From Inconstantimicrobium mannanitabidum (lineage in GTDB: Bacteria; Bacillota; Clostridia; Clostridiales; Clostridiaceae), in the NCBI RefSeq assembly GCF_024345225.1, contig NZ_BROD01000001.1, forward strand, positions 3,452,516-3,484,515: 32,000 nt of DNA, given 5' to 3'. Below, piece after piece: positions 4,144 to 30,385 of the stretch. The notes under the pieces were generated by a model. The model had not been told where the DNA came from, searched no databases, and worked only from the letters and a program-made list of their open reading frames with translations. The translations under genes and the position numbers were made by a program. Each line of letters starts with the position of its first letter. Positions within the stretch are counted from its first letter, which is position 1.

Positions 4144-6567
4144 CTAACGTATATTTTCTTGCAAAATATCAATAAACTCTTTAACAATATATGGATCAAA
4201 CTGTGTCCCTGAACATTCATTCAATTCTTTAAAGGCATATTCTAAATTAAAAGCCTCCTTATAAGCTCTCTTATTAGTCATTACATCAAAAGAATCTACT
4301 ACATTTATTATTCTTGATAATAACGGAATCTCTTCTCCCTTAAGACCATTTGGATATCCAGTACCATCATATCTCTCATGATGAGCTAGTATTTCGTTTG
4401 CGATGTGTGAAAAATCAGAGCTTGATTTTGCAATTCTATATCCAATTTGAGTATGTGTTTTCATTATAGCCCATTCCTCCACTGTAAGCTTGCCTGGCTT
4501 CATAAGAATATTTTCTGGTATTCCTACTTTACCTATATCATGAAGTAATGACAATAATTTTAATTCATCTAACTTTTCTTGATTTAATCCTAGCTTCTCT
4601 CCTAGTTGAATACTTAATTCCTTTATCCTAACAGTATGTTCTTCTGTCTCGCTATGCTTCTCATGGAGAGTATTTAGTAAAGATTCTATAGTTGCACTTC
4701 TAGTACTCTCTTCTTCTGTAAGCTTATTACGATACATTCTCAAATCTGCTAATCCCATTACTAATTCAGTCTCGCTAATTTCCTCTGTCTTACTTGCATA
4801 TCCTATAGCCATACTAACTTTGTACTTGTATCCAAACAAGCTATCACATTTTATTTTTATCTTGTCTTGCAGATTTTTTACATATTCCTCATCTTTATCT
4901 TCTATTAAAATAATAAATTCATCCCCACCCAAGCGAGATATTATATCATCTTGTTCACAACTTTCTGTTAATATGTTAGCAATTGTACACAGCAAATGAT
5001 CTCCTTCCTTATGACCGAAGGTATCATTAACAACTTTTAATCCATTAACATCACACATAACAATATAGTACTGGGATTTAGGACTTGAGTCTAAAGCTTG
5101 AAATTGTTTCTCCATATAGGACCTGTTCCTTAATCCAGTAAGCTTATCTGAATAGCTTAAAAATAACGTTTCCTCTTCATATTTTTTTCTATCTGTTATA
5201 TTTACCAAAGTACTTATAATTCTTAATGGCTTTCCGTTTTCATCCTTTCCTACAATCTTTCCTCTATGTAAAACCCATGTTATATTTCCTAACTGATCTA
5301 TCATTCTGTATTCTGCATTAAAATACTCAGAGTTTCCATTAATAATATTATGATAATGTTCTCTTAAACGCTCTGCACATTCTAAATGCACTCTAGATAC
5401 ATATTCCCTCTCTGAAACATAATTCTTTTCACTATTAAATCCAATTAATTGTTTTAATTCATTACTTATATACACCCTATCTTCTTTAACTGAATAATCC
5501 AAAACTCCATCATTAGTAGCCTCCATAAGCATCATAAATCTTTCATTTTGTTCTCTCATTCCTTTATAAGCTAAATTAAGCTCTTTTAACATTCTATTAG
5601 TTAATGCTGCAAACATTGCATATTCATCTTTTCCGGGTAAGGAAATCGTTCTTGTAATATCCTTACTTACTATAATCTCTTCGATAAAATCATTAAGTTT
5701 TTTTAATCTTTTTAAGCTATACTTGTTTAAAACTATAAAATCTATAGCTATGATAGCTATGAGTAAAATTATAAAATGTATGTTAAAAAGAATAAAATAT
5801 TCATTTACTGCTTTCTTATCTCCAAAATTAATTAATTTTACAGCAATGACATCATCTCCATTAATGTTCTTTAGCACTTTTACAGCTTCTATAGATTCTT
5901 TATCTTGTTTATATCTTATATTTTCAACTAACTTATCATAACTCGATATATTAAATTTACTTGCTTCTTCAATATCAGCTTCTACATTAACCAACCTTTT
6001 CAAGATATTGAATGTGCTTATGTCTAAATGTTTTATAATAATTAAAAAACCATTACTAATGTTTTGATTATCTGATGGCGTTACAGTTGATATTCCAACA
6101 ACATACAAATTACCATTTTGCACCATTAGACCTACTCTATTCTTTTTTATGTTTTCAATATGTACACTATTAATTATATCTTTAGATATCTTTTTCTCTT
6201 TATCCTCTTTTGCATATACTATCTTTCCACTTTTGTTTATAAAAATCATTGCTTGCAAATCCAAGTTTTTTAATGTGTCATCCTGTAAATTTGAAGCAAT
6301 ATACTTTTTATCACTGTTCGTTATAAATTCATATGTATCTGTCCATTTAGCCCAATCTTCAACAGTTCTAGTTACACTATTCTGTTCTTTAGTAATAACA
6401 TCACTTACTGCATCAAAACTTTTCTTTGTTTCTTCAAGCTTTCTATTATTTACATATCCAGAATAAGAATGTTCAAAAATAATATCTGTAACTCCTATAA
6501 GCGGAATTACACTTAATACAGTTATAACAATTGCCTTATATTTTATTTTTATAATTTTCACCTCCAA
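4144..6567 (-). CDS. Membrane sensor diguanylate cyclase / HD-GYP phosphodiesterase (extracytoplasmic sensor-TM-PAS-GGDEF-HD-GYP)
   Basis: 807 aa. Two TM segments flank an extracytoplasmic domain of about 240 aa. PAS-like MLMEATNDGVLDY. GGDEF domain with intact RLGGDEFIILI. HD-GYP domain with HDIGKVGIP and HHERYDGTGYPNG. The exact start is uncertain: TTG 6567, GTG 6561, or a rarer codon after the GGAGG at 6566-6562. Confidence 0.9.
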   Translation of the reverse strand: MEVKIIKIKYKAIVITVLSVIPLIGVTDIIFEHSYSGYVNNRKLEETKKSFDAVSDVITKEQNSVTRTVEDWAKWTDTYEFITNSDKKYIASNLQDDTLKNLDLQAMIFINKSGKIVYAKEDKEKKISKDIINSVHIENIKKNRVGLMVQNGNLYVVGISTVTPSDNQNISNGFLIIIKHLDISTFNILKRLVNVEADIEEASKFNISSYDKLVENIRYKQDKESIEAVKVLKNINGDDVIAVKLINFGDKKAVNEYFILFNIHFIILLIAIIAIDFIVLNKYSLKRLKKLNDFIEEIIVSKDITRTISLPGKDEYAMFAALTNRMLKELNLAYKGMREQNERFMMLMEATNDGVLDYSVKEDRVYISNELKQLIGFNSEKNYVSEREYVSRVHLECAERLREHYHNIINGNSEYFNAEYRMIDQLGNITWVLHRGKIVGKDENGKPLRIISTLVNITDRKKYEEETLFLSYSDKLTGLRNRSYMEKQFQALDSSPKSQYYIVMCDVNGLKVVNDTFGHKEGDHLLCTIANILTESCEQDDIISRLGGDEFIILIEDKDEEYVKNLQDKIKIKCDSLFGYKYKVSMAIGYASKTEEISETELVMGLADLRMYRNKLTEEESTRSATIESLLNTLHEKHSETEEHTVRIKELSIQLGEKLGLNQEKLDELKLLSLLHDIGKVGIPENILMKPGKLTVEEWAIMKTHTQIGYRIAKSSSDFSHIANEILAHHERYDGTGYPNGLKGEEIPLLSRIINVVDSFDVMTNKRAYKEAFNLEYAFKELNECSGTQFDPYIVKEFIDILQENIR

Positions 6568-6625: not shown

Positions 6626-6691
6626 AGACATCTAAAAATAAGTAGAGATTCCAAATAGATTAATATATAAACTATTTACTTCCAGATGCCT
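6626..6691 (-). repeat. Palindromic repeat element, copy A (in the 5' region of the GGDEF/HD-GYP gene)
   Basis: Minus strand: AGGCATCTGGAAGTAAATAG - 26 nt - CTACTTATTTTTAGATGTCT. As minus-strand RNA, 19 of 20 positions pair, including 4 G-U pairs. As plus-strand RNA those four become C-A mismatches. Confidence 0.8.
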
Positions 6692-8119: not shown

Positions 8120-8168
8120 GGCATCGGAAAATAAACTAGCATATAAACCTATTTACTTTCAGATGCCT
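8120..8168 (-). repeat. Palindromic repeat element, copy B (abuts the nitroreductase SD)
   Basis: Plus strand: GGCATCGGAAAATAAACTAG-CATATAAAC-CTATTTACTTTCAGATGCCT. It is immediately followed by AAGGAGGG and ATG 8184. The conserved arm AGGCATCTGAAAGTAAATAG reads on the minus strand. Confidence 0.8.
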
Positions 8169-8183
8169 AAGGAGGGAACCAAA

Positions 8184-8924
8184 ATGAATGAAGTCATTAA
8201 AACATTAACAAATCATAGATCTATTCGTAATTATAAATCTACACCCGTGTCAAAAGAAGATTTATCATTAATCATCAAAGCGAGTCAAGCAGCCCCTTCT
8301 TCTATACATGGGCAACAAGTTACAATCATAAGCGTAGAAGATAAAGAAAAAAAGAAAAAGCTTTCTGAGCTAGTAGGAAATCAAACTTACGTAGATCAAG
8401 CTCCATTATTTCTTATATTCTGTGCAGATTTTTATAGAGCAAAAATTGCAGCTGATATTGTAGGAGAAGATATGGTTCTTGCAGAAAGTGAAGAAGGAAA
8501 ATTAGTAGGTGCTGTTGATGTAGGTCTTGCAATGGGAAATGCAATTGCTGCTGCAGAATCTTTAGGCTTAGGAATAGTTCCTATCGGTGGAATTAGAAAG
8601 GATGCTGAAGCAGTAGCAGAACTTTTAGAACTTCCTAAGTATGTATTTCCTATGGTTGGCTTAGTTGTCGGTCATCCTGAAGACATTTCTAATTTAAAAC
8701 CTCGTTTTCCTGAAGAAGTTATACATCACAAAGAAAAATATAATACAGATCTAAAATCTGAAATAGAAGAGTATGATCAAGTACTAAAAAATCATATGAT
8801 AAATGTAACTAATGGAGTGTATGATCAAACTTGGAGTGAAACTATAGGTGGAACATATAAGAGTGTTTATTATCCAAAAGTAAAGCAGGCCTTAGAAAAA
8901 CAAGGTTTTACAGGTACAAAATAA
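8184..8924 (+). CDS. Oxygen-insensitive NADPH nitroreductase (NfsA/NfrA-like)
   Basis: Start moved from the track's 8118 to ATG 8184, which has SD AAGGAGGG 7 nt upstream. MNEVIKTLTNHRSIRNYKSTPVSKEDL... and QAPLFLIFCADFYR are typical of the NfsA family. Confidence 0.9.
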   Translation: MNEVIKTLTNHRSIRNYKSTPVSKEDLSLIIKASQAAPSSIHGQQVTIISVEDKEKKKKLSELVGNQTYVDQAPLFLIFCADFYRAKIAADIVGEDMVLAESEEGKLVGAVDVGLAMGNAIAAAESLGLGIVPIGGIRKDAEAVAELLELPKYVFPMVGLVVGHPEDISNLKPRFPEEVIHHKEKYNTDLKSEIEEYDQVLKNHMINVTNGVYDQTWSETIGGTYKSVYYPKVKQALEKQGFTGTK

Positions 8925-20935: not shown

Positions 20936-21021
20936 TATAGAACTATTCCACTTAAATGTTGGTAGAAAAAAGTCGAATTATTGTAACTTGTCCACCAACA
21001 TTATTATGGAATAGCTCTATA
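20936..21021 (+). other. Nested inverted repeat (long hairpin) at the start of the leader of the 21152 gene
   Basis: The outer arms are TATAGAACTATTCCA (20936-20950) and TGGAATAGCTCTATA (21007-21021), matching at 14 of 15 positions. The inner arms AATGTTGGT (20955-20963) and ACCAACATT (20994-21002) match at 9 of 9. Confidence 0.6.
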
Positions 21022-21034
21022 CAAAGAATCTTAA

Positions 21035-21119
21035 GACTTGTTATTTACTTTCAGATGCCTTACAATACATTTACATAATACTGAAAACAATAAAGCATAT
21101 TGAAAAAATAAATAACTAG
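21035..21119 (-). repeat. Palindromic repeat family, copy C (arms in outward-facing order)
   Basis: Plus strand: GACTTGTTATTTACTTTCAGATGCCT (21035-21060), 34 nt, then GCATATTGAAAAAATAAATAACTAG (21095-21119). The conserved arm on the minus strand is AGGCATCTGAAAGTAAATAACAAGTC. Confidence 0.7.
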
Positions 21120-21643: not shown

Positions 21644-23647
21644 TTATTTAAATTGACTTTCATGCTTCTTAAAGAAGTCTACCTTTGGTTCTAAAAACTT
21701 AAGCTTATGAACTTCCTTGTTACCAATGAAAGAGTATATTGGTTCAAAGATATACTCCCAATTCCAAATATCTTCATTGGCTCCTAGGTATTCTCTTACC
21801 ATCTCTGCTCCTTCTGGTGCTATTGGATGGATTAATGCTGTTACTGTACGTACTGCATGGAAAGAATCTATTAAAATCTTCTTTCGCAATTCATTATTGT
21901 TTTCAGCTTCAGCCTGCTTTATATTATTAACCCAGTACTTATTCATGTTTCTAATATAACTATCCAATACATAAGTTATACTGTGGAATTCATGCTTATA
22001 CATATGCTTTTCATAAGTAAGGATTGCCTCATGTGCCTCCTTAAGTATTTCTTCGCTCACTTCACCTTGAGGAATTACTCCATCAAAATACTTTTGTGAT
22101 GTATAGAAGCAAGAACGAACAAGTCTATTAAATACATTAGTAAGAAGATTTCCTTCTTTTAAAACTGTATCTACACCTTCACGCTTATCTTCTTCCATAA
22201 AGGCTTGTGGTTGGAAGCTTGCACTCTTTGTTGATAATCCTAGACTTAAAAAATGGATACGTAGTTGTTCTGCTGTGTAGTAATCAAGAAGTTCCCTTGC
22301 CATTGGAGGTTTAATTTCTGAACTACTACTTGCCTTTTTGCCCATAAATAAAATATGGTTATTAGCAATGATGTTTGGTAACTGAATCTTTGACATATCA
22401 GGCTTTTCATCTATGCTGTTTAATAATGCTGTAAATAAGCCCATTTCTGCAATTCCGTAGAAGTATATATTATCTTCTCCTATAAATTGATAAACCTCAG
22501 CTTCATCATTGTTCCACCACTTCTTCCATTCTTCATCACCAAAACCTTGCTTTTCTAAGTAGGCTTTTGTAAATGATATTGGTGCCCAAAGTGATTCTGG
22601 CCATACCCAAAATGTTAAATCATTTAAATCTTCCTTATCAGGAACCTTAACTCCCCAGTCAACATTCCCCGATAATCTAAATGGTACTAGAGTTTTTCCT
22701 GTTCTAAAGTTAATTCCTTTATTTCCCAGCATAACCCTAGCCTCATCTCTATGCTCTAAATCCTTAAACACAAAGGTTACAGAAGGTTTTTTCTCTTCAT
22801 TTATAGTACTATGTTCTGGTAACTCTGCTTCTAAGGCATCTAAATCCTCTATGTTTTTCTTTTGAACATAGATTACAGGTTCTTTTAAAAACTCTTCAAC
22901 AGTATTTAATAAATACTTACTTGCTTTTTTGGTTTGTCTTAAATAATCTACTCTTTCCTTTAGTAAATCGTTGCATTTATCCAATTTAAAATACCAGTTG
23001 GTAACATCTTTTACTACAGGTTTTTTCCCTGACAAAGCACTTATAGGATCTATAAGTTCACTTGGCATATATTGATGTCCAAGAGAACATTCATCTGCAT
23101 AGGCTTTTTCTGATGAACAACCTTGTATTGGACACTTTCCAATAACCTGTCTTCCATTAAGAAAAACATTAAACTCTTCATCATAAAATTGAGGATTAGA
23201 CATCTTGGTTAGATATCCATTATCATATAACTTTTCAAATACTTCTTTTGAAACCTCACTATGAATTTCTCCAGCTCTATCTAAAGCTGACCCAGCAAAA
23301 AGATTCAAACTAATTTCATATTTATCTAAGGCATCCTTTTGCTTTAAATGATTTTCTTTAACATAGTCTTCTATAGTACCTGAGTATGAATTATCCTCAG
23401 TTATCTTTCTGTAACTTTCTAATATTGGTGAACCATAGCAATCTGTTCCTGATACAAATATAACATTCTCTTTTCCAATTCTATCTCTTAAAAATCTTGC
23501 TAATGTATCAGCGTGGACAAAAACTCCACCTATATGTCCAAAATGTAACTCTTTATTTCCATATGGCATCCCTGCTGTTATTACAGCTCTCTTGGGGAAG
23601 GTTGGTCTTTCATTCTTTCTGGTATTTCGCTCAATGTTTTTTTCCAT
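21644..23647 (-). CDS. metG: Methionine--tRNA ligase (type-2/E. coli-like architecture with a Cys knuckle, no C-terminal Trbp111-like domain evident)
   Basis: Start moved to ATG 23647 (MEKNIERN...), which has SD AGGAGAG 6 nt upstream. The HIGH-type motif is ELHFGHIGG. The zinc-knuckle-like segment is KCPIQGCSSEKAYADECSLGH. The anticodon-binding helical C-terminus has WVNN. A T-box leader lies upstream. Confidence 0.9.
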   Translation of the reverse strand: MEKNIERNTRKNERPTFPKRAVITAGMPYGNKELHFGHIGGVFVHADTLARFLRDRIGKENVIFVSGTDCYGSPILESYRKITEDNSYSGTIEDYVKENHLKQKDALDKYEISLNLFAGSALDRAGEIHSEVSKEVFEKLYDNGYLTKMSNPQFYDEEFNVFLNGRQVIGKCPIQGCSSEKAYADECSLGHQYMPSELIDPISALSGKKPVVKDVTNWYFKLDKCNDLLKERVDYLRQTKKASKYLLNTVEEFLKEPVIYVQKKNIEDLDALEAELPEHSTINEEKKPSVTFVFKDLEHRDEARVMLGNKGINFRTGKTLVPFRLSGNVDWGVKVPDKEDLNDLTFWVWPESLWAPISFTKAYLEKQGFGDEEWKKWWNNDEAEVYQFIGEDNIYFYGIAEMGLFTALLNSIDEKPDMSKIQLPNIIANNHILFMGKKASSSSEIKPPMARELLDYYTAEQLRIHFLSLGLSTKSASFQPQAFMEEDKREGVDTVLKEGNLLTNVFNRLVRSCFYTSQKYFDGVIPQGEVSEEILKEAHEAILTYEKHMYKHEFHSITYVLDSYIRNMNKYWVNNIKQAEAENNNELRKKILIDSFHAVRTVTALIHPIAPEGAEMVREYLGANEDIWNWEYIFEPIYSFIGNKEVHKLKFLEPKVDFFKKHESQFK

Positions 23648-23671: not shown

Positions 23672-23742
23672 GGGCATCTTCAAAAAATAAATAAGTCCAT
23701 ATGCAATAGATATTTAAACTTGCTATTTATTTTCACATGCCT
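23672..23742 (-). repeat. Palindromic repeat element, copy D (between the T-box terminator and the metG SD)
   Basis: Minus strand: AGGCATGTGAAAATAAATAG-CAAGTTTAAATATCTATTGCATATGGA-CTTATTTATTTTTTGAAGATGCCC. The 3' arm ends 11 nt before SD AGGAGAG. Confidence 0.8.
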
Positions 23743-23805: not shown

Positions 23806-24150
23806 AAAAAAACACCTCCTACAATTTAACTTGCAGGGGCGAAATATTCTCCGCGGTACCACCCTAATTTATTAACATGTCACCATATTAACCTTATCGA
23901 GTACAAATTATACCCTAGTTCTGTAACGTGAACTCACGTCATAGCATCACCTACTAAATAAGGCACCTGAAAGCACATAGGCTTATATCCTAGTCTATTG
24001 GGACTTGTTATTTATTTTCAGATACCTAAATAAGATCCGTATGAAGCTCAGAGGCTTGTTTCATCAAGTTTCCAACTATCTCATTCCAGCAAACTGAGAC
24101 TCTCTGTAAGTTTTTAAAATGACTACTCTTCTCTTCCTAGCCGTTAAAAT
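23806..24150 (-). promoter_or_regulatory. T-box riboswitch leader controlling metG
   Basis: On the minus strand, the canonical T-box sequence AAATTAGGGTGGTACCGCGG is at 23870-23851. A terminator follows: CGCCCCTGCAA-GTTAAA-TTGTAGGAGGTG plus TTTTTTT (23841-23806). Stem I elements are AGAGAG (24106-24100), a distal-loop-like GTTTGCTGGAA, and a candidate specifier AUG followed by A in CTTGATGAAAC (ATG at 24064-24062). Confidence 0.85.
23961..24027 (-). repeat. Palindromic repeat element, copy E (inside the T-box leader)
   Basis: Minus strand: AGGTATCTGAAAATAAATAACAAGTC...GCTTTCAGGTGCCT. The outer 12 bp pair perfectly as minus-strand RNA, with two G-U pairs. It is flanked by the direct repeat CTAAATAAG at 23954-23962 and 24026-24034. 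Confidence 0.8.
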
Positions 24151-29478: not shown

Positions 29479-29656
29479 AATCTCTCCTCTTTTTTAATGT
29501 ATTCTTATTACAATATCTATAACTACTCATTAATATATACGATTATTTTCATCCAAAAGTTTACAGTACTATATACATTATATTTAAGCTTTCTCAAATA
29601 ACATACATATAAACCAAATAAACCTCTACTCTTTAAAAATAATTTCATTAAACTAA

Positions 29657-29701
29657 AGAAACACCGTATCCATTCTGCAATTACATGGATACGGTGTTTC
29701 T
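29657..29701. terminator. Strong terminator hairpin after the lipoprotein gene
   Basis: AGAAACACCGTATCCAT-(11 nt)-ATGGATACGGTGTTTCT, a perfect 17-bp stem. T-rich tracts follow on both strands. Confidence 0.8.
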
Positions 29702-29704
29702 TTT

Positions 29705-29726
29705 AGGCATCTTCAAAAAATAAATC
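29705..29726 (+). repeat. Solo arm of the palindromic repeat family
   Basis: AGGCATCTTCAAAAAATAAATC. The 20-mer GGCATCTTCAAAAAATAAAT (29706-29725) is identical to 23673-23692 in copy D. It lies between the lipoprotein stop codon and its terminator. Confidence 0.65.
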
Positions 29727-29761
29727 TTTCCTAATATATAGTTGTCATTCTCTACTAATTG

Positions 29762-30385
29762 TTACCCATGAAAATAACCAGTTCTTGCTGAAACTACAAC
29801 ATAAGGTACTTCCTTATTATTTTTCTTAACATATGCTTGATATAAATCTTTATTTAAATGCTCCAATCTAACTACTTTTTCTCCATAAATATCATTCAAA
29901 TCTTTTTCAAATAACTGTTGCCAATCATTAAGGATAGGTGCATTTGAAGTCATATAAGCTGCAAACTTTGCTAAGTCCTGAGAATTTCCGCCTTTTGCTA
30001 CATACTGCTTATATAAACTTACAATATCAGCTTTATTTAAAAAACTCTTACTCCATTTTATTTTACTTGCTTCTGCTTTATCTCCTTGACCATTAATAAT
30101 GTATTCCTTAACTTTTTCACTAATATTCTGCTCTGTATAAGTTCTATTCTTTATACTATCCTTTGAGGATTTAATTTTTTCATTTGAAGCCCCATTTGTT
30201 GAATTTTGCTTAGAAGCATCACTTGAATCCTGTGTTGATGCTTTTGGCTCTGGGATATCATTACTTTGAGCAGCAACCTCTGTTGACTTGCTATCTGGTA
30301 ACTTATTGTCATTATTAGAATTATTTAATGAACATCCACTTAAAAACATTGTACACAATAATATGCCTAGCACTATCTTTTTCAT
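29762..30385 (-). CDS. Lipoprotein (hypothetical)
   Basis: 207 aa. The signal peptide has the lipobox LSGC (MKKIVLGILLCTMFLSGCS). A low-complexity Ser/Asn/Lys linker is followed by a folded C-terminal domain. Confidence 0.8.
   Translation of the reverse strand: MKKIVLGILLCTMFLSGCSLNNSNNDNKLPDSKSTEVAAQSNDIPEPKASTQDSSDASKQNSTNGASNEKIKSSKDSIKNRTYTEQNISEKVKEYIINGQGDKAEASKIKWSKSFLNKADIVSLYKQYVAKGGNSQDLAKFAAYMTSNAPILNDWQQLFEKDLNDIYGEKVVRLEHLNKDLYQAYVKKNNKEVPYVVVSARTGYFHG

Follow-up and report, generated by a model that had tools for sequence, protein, structure and literature searches.

Recurrent hairpins in an Inconstantimicrobium mannanitabidum locus are very probably copies and relics of a MITE with ISAzo13-type ends

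Several hairpin-forming elements of bacteria are described as MITEs, i.e. Correia/NEMIS in Neisseria, ERIC in enterobacteria, RUP and BOX in S. pneumoniae and bcr1 in the B. cereus group (cf. PMC10969869). Like the family described below, they are intergenic sequences of 100–160 bp with terminal inverted repeats, short A/T-rich duplications and many copies, and their transcripts fold into long hairpins. By contrast, the present family has another sequence, duplicates 3 bp (TWA) rather than TA or TTTAT, and points to ISAzo13 rather than to IS630 or other families. ISAzo13, a little-studied IS family, also comes close: its ISs share with the MITE the termini GGCAY...AAAATAAATAAYAAGTCA, the same difference between left and right ends and the same 3-bp TAA duplication. 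They differ from it in being ∼1.5 kb long and in carrying a PF07592 transposase, whereas the elements in our locus are 48–69 bp, the long form of the family is 160 bp and both are non-coding; the internal sequence of the MITE is also unrelated to that of the ISAzo13 ISs. Three-base-pair duplications are reported for ISAzo13 elements and for their eukaryotic relative Zator (PMC10045372), which belongs to another domain of life.

Two other groups of elements bear a more general likeness to the family. REP and BIME elements with RAYT transposases are likewise short, intergenic, imperfect palindromes present in many copies. To our knowledge, REPs have neither target-site duplications nor terminal repeats of the DDE type, whereas the present family has both. 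Tourist MITEs also use TAA and TTA; they are, however, eukaryotic and stem from PIF/Harbinger, not from ISAzo13/Zator. In the portions of the literature that were searched, we found no description of a MITE derived from ISAzo13, and neither the sequence string of the element nor a Clostridium MITE of such a kind. The elements reported here are of a known kind (bacterial MITE), and their IS family, probably ISAzo13, is one with no described MITE in those portions of the literature.

In the 32,000-nt stretch of I. mannanitabidum DNA analysed here (hereafter the window), the 20-mer AGGCATCTGAAAGTAAATAG has six matches with at most three mismatches, compared with 0.02 expected, and this count was reached in none of 100 shuffles. 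Five matches lie on the minus strand and mark copies A (6672–6691), B (8149–8168), C (21041–21060), D (23723–23742) and E (24008–24027); the sixth (23961–23980, plus strand) corresponds to the partner arm of E. The recurrent arm that a first-pass annotation of the same DNA had placed at these five minus-strand positions is real. Partner arms, also claimed there, are present for A (6626–6648), B (8120–8136), D (23672–23694) and E (23961–23980), giving hairpins of 66, 49, 71 and 67 bp, respectively, and reading copy A by hand reproduces the earlier pairing of 19 of 20 positions on the minus strand with four G-U pairs. A partner had been proposed for C as well (21093–21113), but it flanks the conserved arm on its other side and appears to be the right-end remnant of a neighbouring truncated copy (hereafter C'). 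One piece had been overlooked, namely a solo right end at 29705–29728 on the minus strand (hereafter F).

The window copies are short or broken copies of a non-coding MITE, old and mostly decayed, and all are on the minus strand. Four of them (A, B, D and E) are short forms with both ends. Copy A (6626–6691; element proper 6627–6690, 64 bp) has its left end at 6672–6691 and its right end at 6626–6648, and lies in the leader of a CHASE4-PAS-GGDEF-HD_5 gene (4144–6567, minus strand); with TTA on one flank and TCT on the other (plus strand), its duplication has decayed. Copy B (8120–8168; element proper 8120–8167, 48 bp) has a shortened right arm and a decayed duplication (GAT and TAA). Only 2 nt separate its left end from AGGAGG, the ribosome-binding site of a nitroreductase gene on the plus strand (8184–8924), whose mRNA therefore carries the complement strand of the element. 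Copy D (23672–23742; element proper 23673–23741) belongs to the 69–71-bp subfamily, is flanked by TTG and TTA on the plus strand (two of three positions match) and lies between a T-box terminator and the ribosome-binding site of a methionyl-tRNA synthetase (MetRS) gene. Copy E (23959–24029; element proper 23962–24026, 65 bp) has a perfect 3-bp duplication, with TAA at 23959–23961 and 24027–24029 on the plus strand.

The remaining three pieces are single ends. Copy C (21034–21062) is a putative solo left end, with 27 nt matching the family profile and a TTA flank at 21060–21062; a matching right end was sought for it and not found. C' (21093–21113), which reads CTAGTTATTTATTTTTTCAATATGCTT, has the orientation of C and lies 33 nt upstream of it on the minus strand; it would be what is left of a second truncated copy. 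Copy F (29703–29728) consists of the right end GATTTATTTTTTGAAGATGCCT followed by TAA, has no mismatch to the right-end pattern and lies between the stop codon of the gene at 29762–30385 (minus strand) and a terminator-like hairpin. For A and B, where no duplication can be recognised, and for the single ends C, C' and F, assignment to the MITE family is based on their similarity to the family ends. A search of the window with the long-form profile returned end pieces only, and no transposase was found among the window ORFs. That the window copies are MITE copies and relics is, in our judgement, very likely; of the candidates named in the first-pass annotation, the mobile palindrome was the right one, in its MITE part and not its REP part.

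Two other hairpins adjoin these pieces. Directly after F, the terminator-like hairpin AAAGAAACACCGTATCCAT...ATGGATACGGTGTTTCTTT (29655–29702, minus strand) lies downstream of the gene 29762–30385. Next to the solo end C, a nested hairpin (20940–21030, minus strand) has GGAATAG..CTATAC arms around AATGTTGGTGG...CCACCAACATT and gave no match when compared with the family profile.

We then looked at the family in other genomes. The pattern AGGYATSTGRAARTAAATA, scanned over one genome per species, occurs at at least 120 loci, and among the matches listed most come from one Clostridium clade (hosts among these are C. arbusti, C. punense, C. subterminale, C. sulfidigenes, C. tunisiense and several MAGs). 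Enrichment beyond the window, a check set beforehand, was found with these loci. In these hosts, a conserved nested palindrome of ∼160 bp begins with the 20-mer. In this full form, imperfect terminal inverted repeats of ∼26 bp enclose a ∼100-bp core, which folds into one long hairpin; the left end of the full form is GGCATCTGAAAATAAATAAYAAGTCA, its right end (reverse complement) is GGCATCTTCAAAAAATAAATAAGTCA and its consensus is AGGCATCTGAAAATAAATAAYAAGTCAAAGATG...ACAAGGAAACAGGTTCYG..GATAG...CTATC..GGGTTCTGYTGACGCAGTA...AAAATAG...CTGACTTATTTATTTTTTGAAGATGCCT. When each left end is paired with the nearest right end within 2.5 kb, the elements fall into size classes of 150–177, 60–70 and about 36–45 bp, and the largest class accounts for 70 of the 101 left ends that have a right end among the matches listed. 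Elements of all sizes (36–177 bp) have no coding capacity, and no copy lies inside an ORF of at least 100 aa. Imperfect terminal repeats of ∼26 nt are found in both long and short forms, and both ends are recognisable in A, B, D and E of the window.

The two ends of the family differ from each other, the left being GGCATCTGAAAATAAATAA and the right, as reverse complement, GGCATCTTCAAAAAATAAATAAG. Read in this way, the right end AGGCATCTTCAAAAAATAAATAAGTCA is the same as the GGCATC(T/G)nAAAAATAAA arm of the first-pass annotation, which had regarded the combination of one conserved and one divergent arm as unusual. The difference between the arms reflects the two distinct ends of the family, which its probable parent IS has as well, and not free drift of one arm.

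The short forms (60–70 bp and ∼36 bp) would have arisen from the long form by internal deletion. A 69-bp form with the same internal junction occurs at several sites of one MAG (L036, L058 and L063), and the flanks of L036 and L058, checked by eye, carry TAA and TTA. Further variation was seen at both ends of the size range. A 176–177-bp variant of the long form (L001, L014, L079 and L087, from C. punense and MAGs) has an extra palindromic insert, CACAAGCAAGCTTGTG, in its left half, and this insert is present twice in L087. In the minimal ∼36-nt forms (L029, L034, L092 and L102), the left end runs straight into GATGCCT; these look like deletions between an internal AAGATGC and the terminal AAGATGCC.

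The insertion sites of the family share a fixed pattern. We examined the flanks of 93 complete copies: 91 have T at position −2, 88 have A at position +2, and in 81 the base at −1 recurs at +1. The two flanking triplets agree in 78 of the 93, as TAA...TAA (42 copies) or TTA...TTA (36), so that GGCATC...GATGCC is the element proper and TWA its 3-bp target-site duplication. A TA duplication (IS630-like) was also considered and fits only 8 of the 93 copies.

Inverted-repeat symmetry and promoter-proximal or gene-end positions would also be expected if the hairpins were operators of a dimeric DNA-binding regulator or simple intrinsic terminators. However, the complete window copies form hairpins of 49–71 bp in total, which means that the spacing between the arms is not fixed, and in other genomes the same ends enclose a 100-bp core. 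As read from the sequence, no U-tract follows the stems on either strand, and a genuine terminator-like hairpin, distinct from F, comes after it. We give both an operator and a terminator function only a very slight chance.

The ends themselves point to a parent element. When plasmids were searched by blastn with the left end as query, matches appeared in several from Clostridium, and in C. tagluense pCM008-A (L152) the match lies 175 bp upstream of an annotated ISAzo13 family transposase gene. The IS found there (NZ_CP077606.1, about 62.9–64.5 kb) is 1545 bp long, is flanked by TAA on both sides and runs from GGCACTTCAAAATAAATAACAAGTCAA to TTGACTTGTTATTTTTTTTAGCATGCC or, as also written out between the same TAA triplets, from GGCACTTCAAAATAAATAACAAGTCAATTT to AAATTGACTTGTTATTTTTTTTAGCATGCC. 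Its transposase (403 aa) matches PF07592 (DDE_Tnp_ISAZ013) at 1e-71. Three more ISAzo13 elements (L153, L154 and L156) encode homologues with 71–85% identity and have the same type of ends, L154 being less clear; matching TAA flanks are present in L153, as in L152, while the flanks are unmatched in L154 (CTA and TAA) and L156 (TAA and TTA). The left end of the MITE agrees with that of the ISs (L152 and L153) at 23 of 26 positions, and positions 10–28 are identical between the MITE left end and L152. The right end of the ISs is richer in A, and the MITE mirrors this asymmetry between left and right. Only the termini are common to the MITE and the ISs examined, and the core is not derived from these ISs.

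These similarities make ISAzo13 the likely parent family. An origin from the IS5 family or from PIF/Harbinger, suspected at first from the TWA duplication, was dropped after ISAzo13 elements with matching ends had been found. The elements encode nothing, and an ISAzo13-family DDE transposase would move them in trans; it would recognise the ends, insert the element at TWA and duplicate the 3 bp. Neither the window nor ∼1 Mb of loci from MITE-rich genomes yielded an autonomous ISAzo13 element, and every pair of ends lying 600–3500 bp apart in the fetched loci consists of two neighbouring MITEs. In L152 (815–4910), the ISAzo13 element stands in a cluster of mobile genes, together with an IS4 transposase, a Tn3-family fragment and a group II intron maturase.

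Comparison with a relative provides sites without the element. This relative is metagenomic (Logan SRR24866290), and its MetRS and EamA proteins are 88% and 81% identical to those of the window, which in turn show 100% identity to the I. mannanitabidum proteins. Its T-box leader is the same but has neither E nor D (L121; alignment A2), and its syntenic EamA–GGDEF spacer is without copy A (L149). No family end motifs are present in seven comparison loci, of which L121–L123, L149 and L150 come from the sample series of the relative and L124 and L125 represent a more distant MetRS homologue. These empty sites were found via protein homologues; when the joined flanks of 94 copies were compared by blastn with all fetched loci, only self-hits and no empty site were obtained. 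The features found in the family are those of a MITE, i.e. terminal inverted repeats, a duplication of fixed length, small non-coding elements, dispersed copies, differences in presence or absence and an IS with the same ends.

The first-pass annotation preferred a different reading, in which the hairpins are a cis-regulatory or stabilizing module that acts at the RNA level in leaders and UTRs, with selection on the sense strand. The positions of the window copies fit this reading: A, D, E and F are in sense orientation within or next to minus-strand units, and four copies (A, B, D and E) belong to 5' leaders. However, target-site duplications flank the copies, the orthologous leaders of the close relative are without them and the neighbouring genes are functionally unrelated. 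Copy B is antisense to the very gene whose ribosome-binding site it touches. In other genomes, both flanking genes are on the same strand as the element in 24 cases and on the opposite strand in 32, with 25 mixed. A leader or UTR module, and equally a protein or sRNA target site, is not supported, given the target-site duplications, empty orthologous sites, unrelated neighbouring genes and both orientations.

The orientation of the copies had also been noted as constant. The plus strand of the window has a GC skew of −0.19 to −0.35, so the minus strand is the leading strand, and all seven window pieces read left-to-right on it (two-sided p about 0.016). Within the window the strand lock therefore stands. 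In the family it does not: when 95 complete copies from other genomes are compared with the leading strand given by GC skew, 36 have the same orientation and 59 the opposite one, so a strand lock is not a family property. Non-random orientation, another check set beforehand, was not found in the family, and the seven-of-seven orientation in the window is either due to chance or specific to this genome.

An orientation tied to replication would be explained by REP-type palindromes moved by a RAYT (IS200/IS605-like HUH) transposase on single-stranded DNA, and this explanation also accommodates the leading-strand position of the seven window pieces, their short, intergenic, imperfectly palindromic nature and their strand-asymmetric folding as single strands. 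Against it stand the 3-bp duplication, whose middle base covaries between the two flanks (78 of 93 copies), the match of the ends to ISAzo13 elements of the DDE type and the 36 to 59 split of orientations in other genomes; an HUH transposase was not seen beside the copies in a non-exhaustive look, and we know of no report that REPs make target-site duplications. A REP/RAYT origin is highly improbable in our view.

The hairpin of the long form is supported by covariation. In an alignment of 62 distinct copies, 96.9% of cells are paired and 14 pairs have changed on both sides; none of 500 shuffles scored as high, and slid controls pair in only 27–49% of cells. Covariation support for the stem, which had also been set as a check beforehand, was found in the long form. 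The left-to-right strand folds better than its complement in 60 of the 62 long copies (means −56.6 vs −43.6 kcal/mol) and in all four complete window copies; in copy A, for example, the minimum free energies of the RNA are −17.2 kcal/mol for the minus strand and −6.7 kcal/mol for the plus strand. The RNAalifold consensus gives −28.05 kcal/mol left-to-right and −4.37 kcal/mol for the complement. However, relative to shuffled sequences, the two strands of a representative long copy have z-scores of −8.08 and −7.69, and such near-equal values mean that much of the strand asymmetry reflects G+U content. The G-U asymmetry that had been read as a sign of selection at the RNA level is, accordingly, general among long copies (60 of 62) but mostly a matter of base composition.

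These results bear on the RNA-module reading from both sides. The better left-to-right folding of window and long copies and the strong covariation of the long form would be expected from it, whereas the mostly compositional nature of the asymmetry speaks against it, as does the Rfam comparison: in five loci holding many copies, no family matches the long form at E ≤ 1, and a scan of the window returned the T-box only. No existing Rfam family matches the element, an outcome that had been looked for in advance. With the duplications, empty sites and gene contexts described above, we hold a sense-strand module to be quite improbable, and the window hairpins are better read as MITE copies.

The structure of the long form is nevertheless clearly maintained, be it as RNA, as single-stranded DNA or as cruciform DNA. 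Its core has compensatory changes and many G-U pairs on one strand, which transposase binding at the ends does not explain, and its unpaired stretches are conserved across species. A possible, though rather unlikely, explanation is that the ∼100-nt core is a strand-specific structured RNA carried by the transposon. Such an RNA could be a small RNA or a cis-acting module spread genome-wide, or could be needed for amplification of the element. A search for an internal promoter in the long form gave only weak 9-of-12 matches, no more than in shuffled sequence. As the window contains no long form, this possibility concerns the family and not the window copies. Within the core, a central helix (alignment A3, columns 63–70/95–102) brings together two direct GGTTC repeats, paired by consensus G-U wobbles; it is present in 58–59 of the 62 copies and exists only on the left-to-right strand.

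One of the window copies, E, lies inside a T-box riboswitch. The MetRS gene (21644–23647, minus strand; 667 aa) is predicted to be controlled by this T-box, whose leader lies upstream at 23832–24147 on the minus strand (RF00230; 102.2 bits compared with a gathering score of 93) and hosts E. The site of E is the apical part of Stem II: aligned to the T-box model, this stem, the one after Stem I, has 96 nt where the consensus has 19, and the longer stretch contains E. Since E lies in the 96-nt insert, folds alone at −18.7 kcal/mol and is replaced by a short loop at the same position in the relative (L121), it is an independently folding insertion, and the stem that carries it is a variable one. 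The other parts of the T-box are intact, and the leader still scores above the Rfam threshold. We also considered E as a part of conserved T-box architecture and rejected this, given the 96 vs 19 nt in the model and the absence of E from the orthologous L121 leader.

The visible effect of the copies in the window is that hairpins are added to intergenic DNA and to 5' leaders. Copy E lengthens Stem II of the T-box, D stands between the riboswitch and the ribosome-binding site, B abuts a ribosome-binding site and A is part of the leader of the GGDEF/HD-GYP gene; through these positions the window copies may have a regulatory effect on neighbouring genes. A 65-bp self-folding insertion in Stem II of a leader that remains above threshold amounts to a natural experiment on the variability of this stem. 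Specialists may find two points of interest here, the T-box insertion and the covarying core, the latter being a small question of mobile-element biology. For annotation, hairpins of this MITE family in the Clostridium clade should be masked as mobile-element relics and not recorded as operators, terminators or riboswitch-like motifs.

Sequences with similar ends were also seen in other settings. A scan of viral contigs with the end pattern returned 23 loci, of which only L135 (IMG/VR UViG 2551306709_000010, from a contig with a viral classification) contains a genuine 160-bp copy, and a single one; the other loci have no second end or family sequence and were taken as chance matches. A Bathymodiolus gill symbiont (L013) has a similar left end only. 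Two 162-bp MITE-like elements, in Methyloprofundus (L025) and in L088, share the terminus AGGCAYCTGRAAAYAAATAA... and have an unrelated core; the one in L025 (6545–6706) has TTA on both flanks. The same ends in L025 and L088 indicate that this type of end is widespread and crosses phyla.
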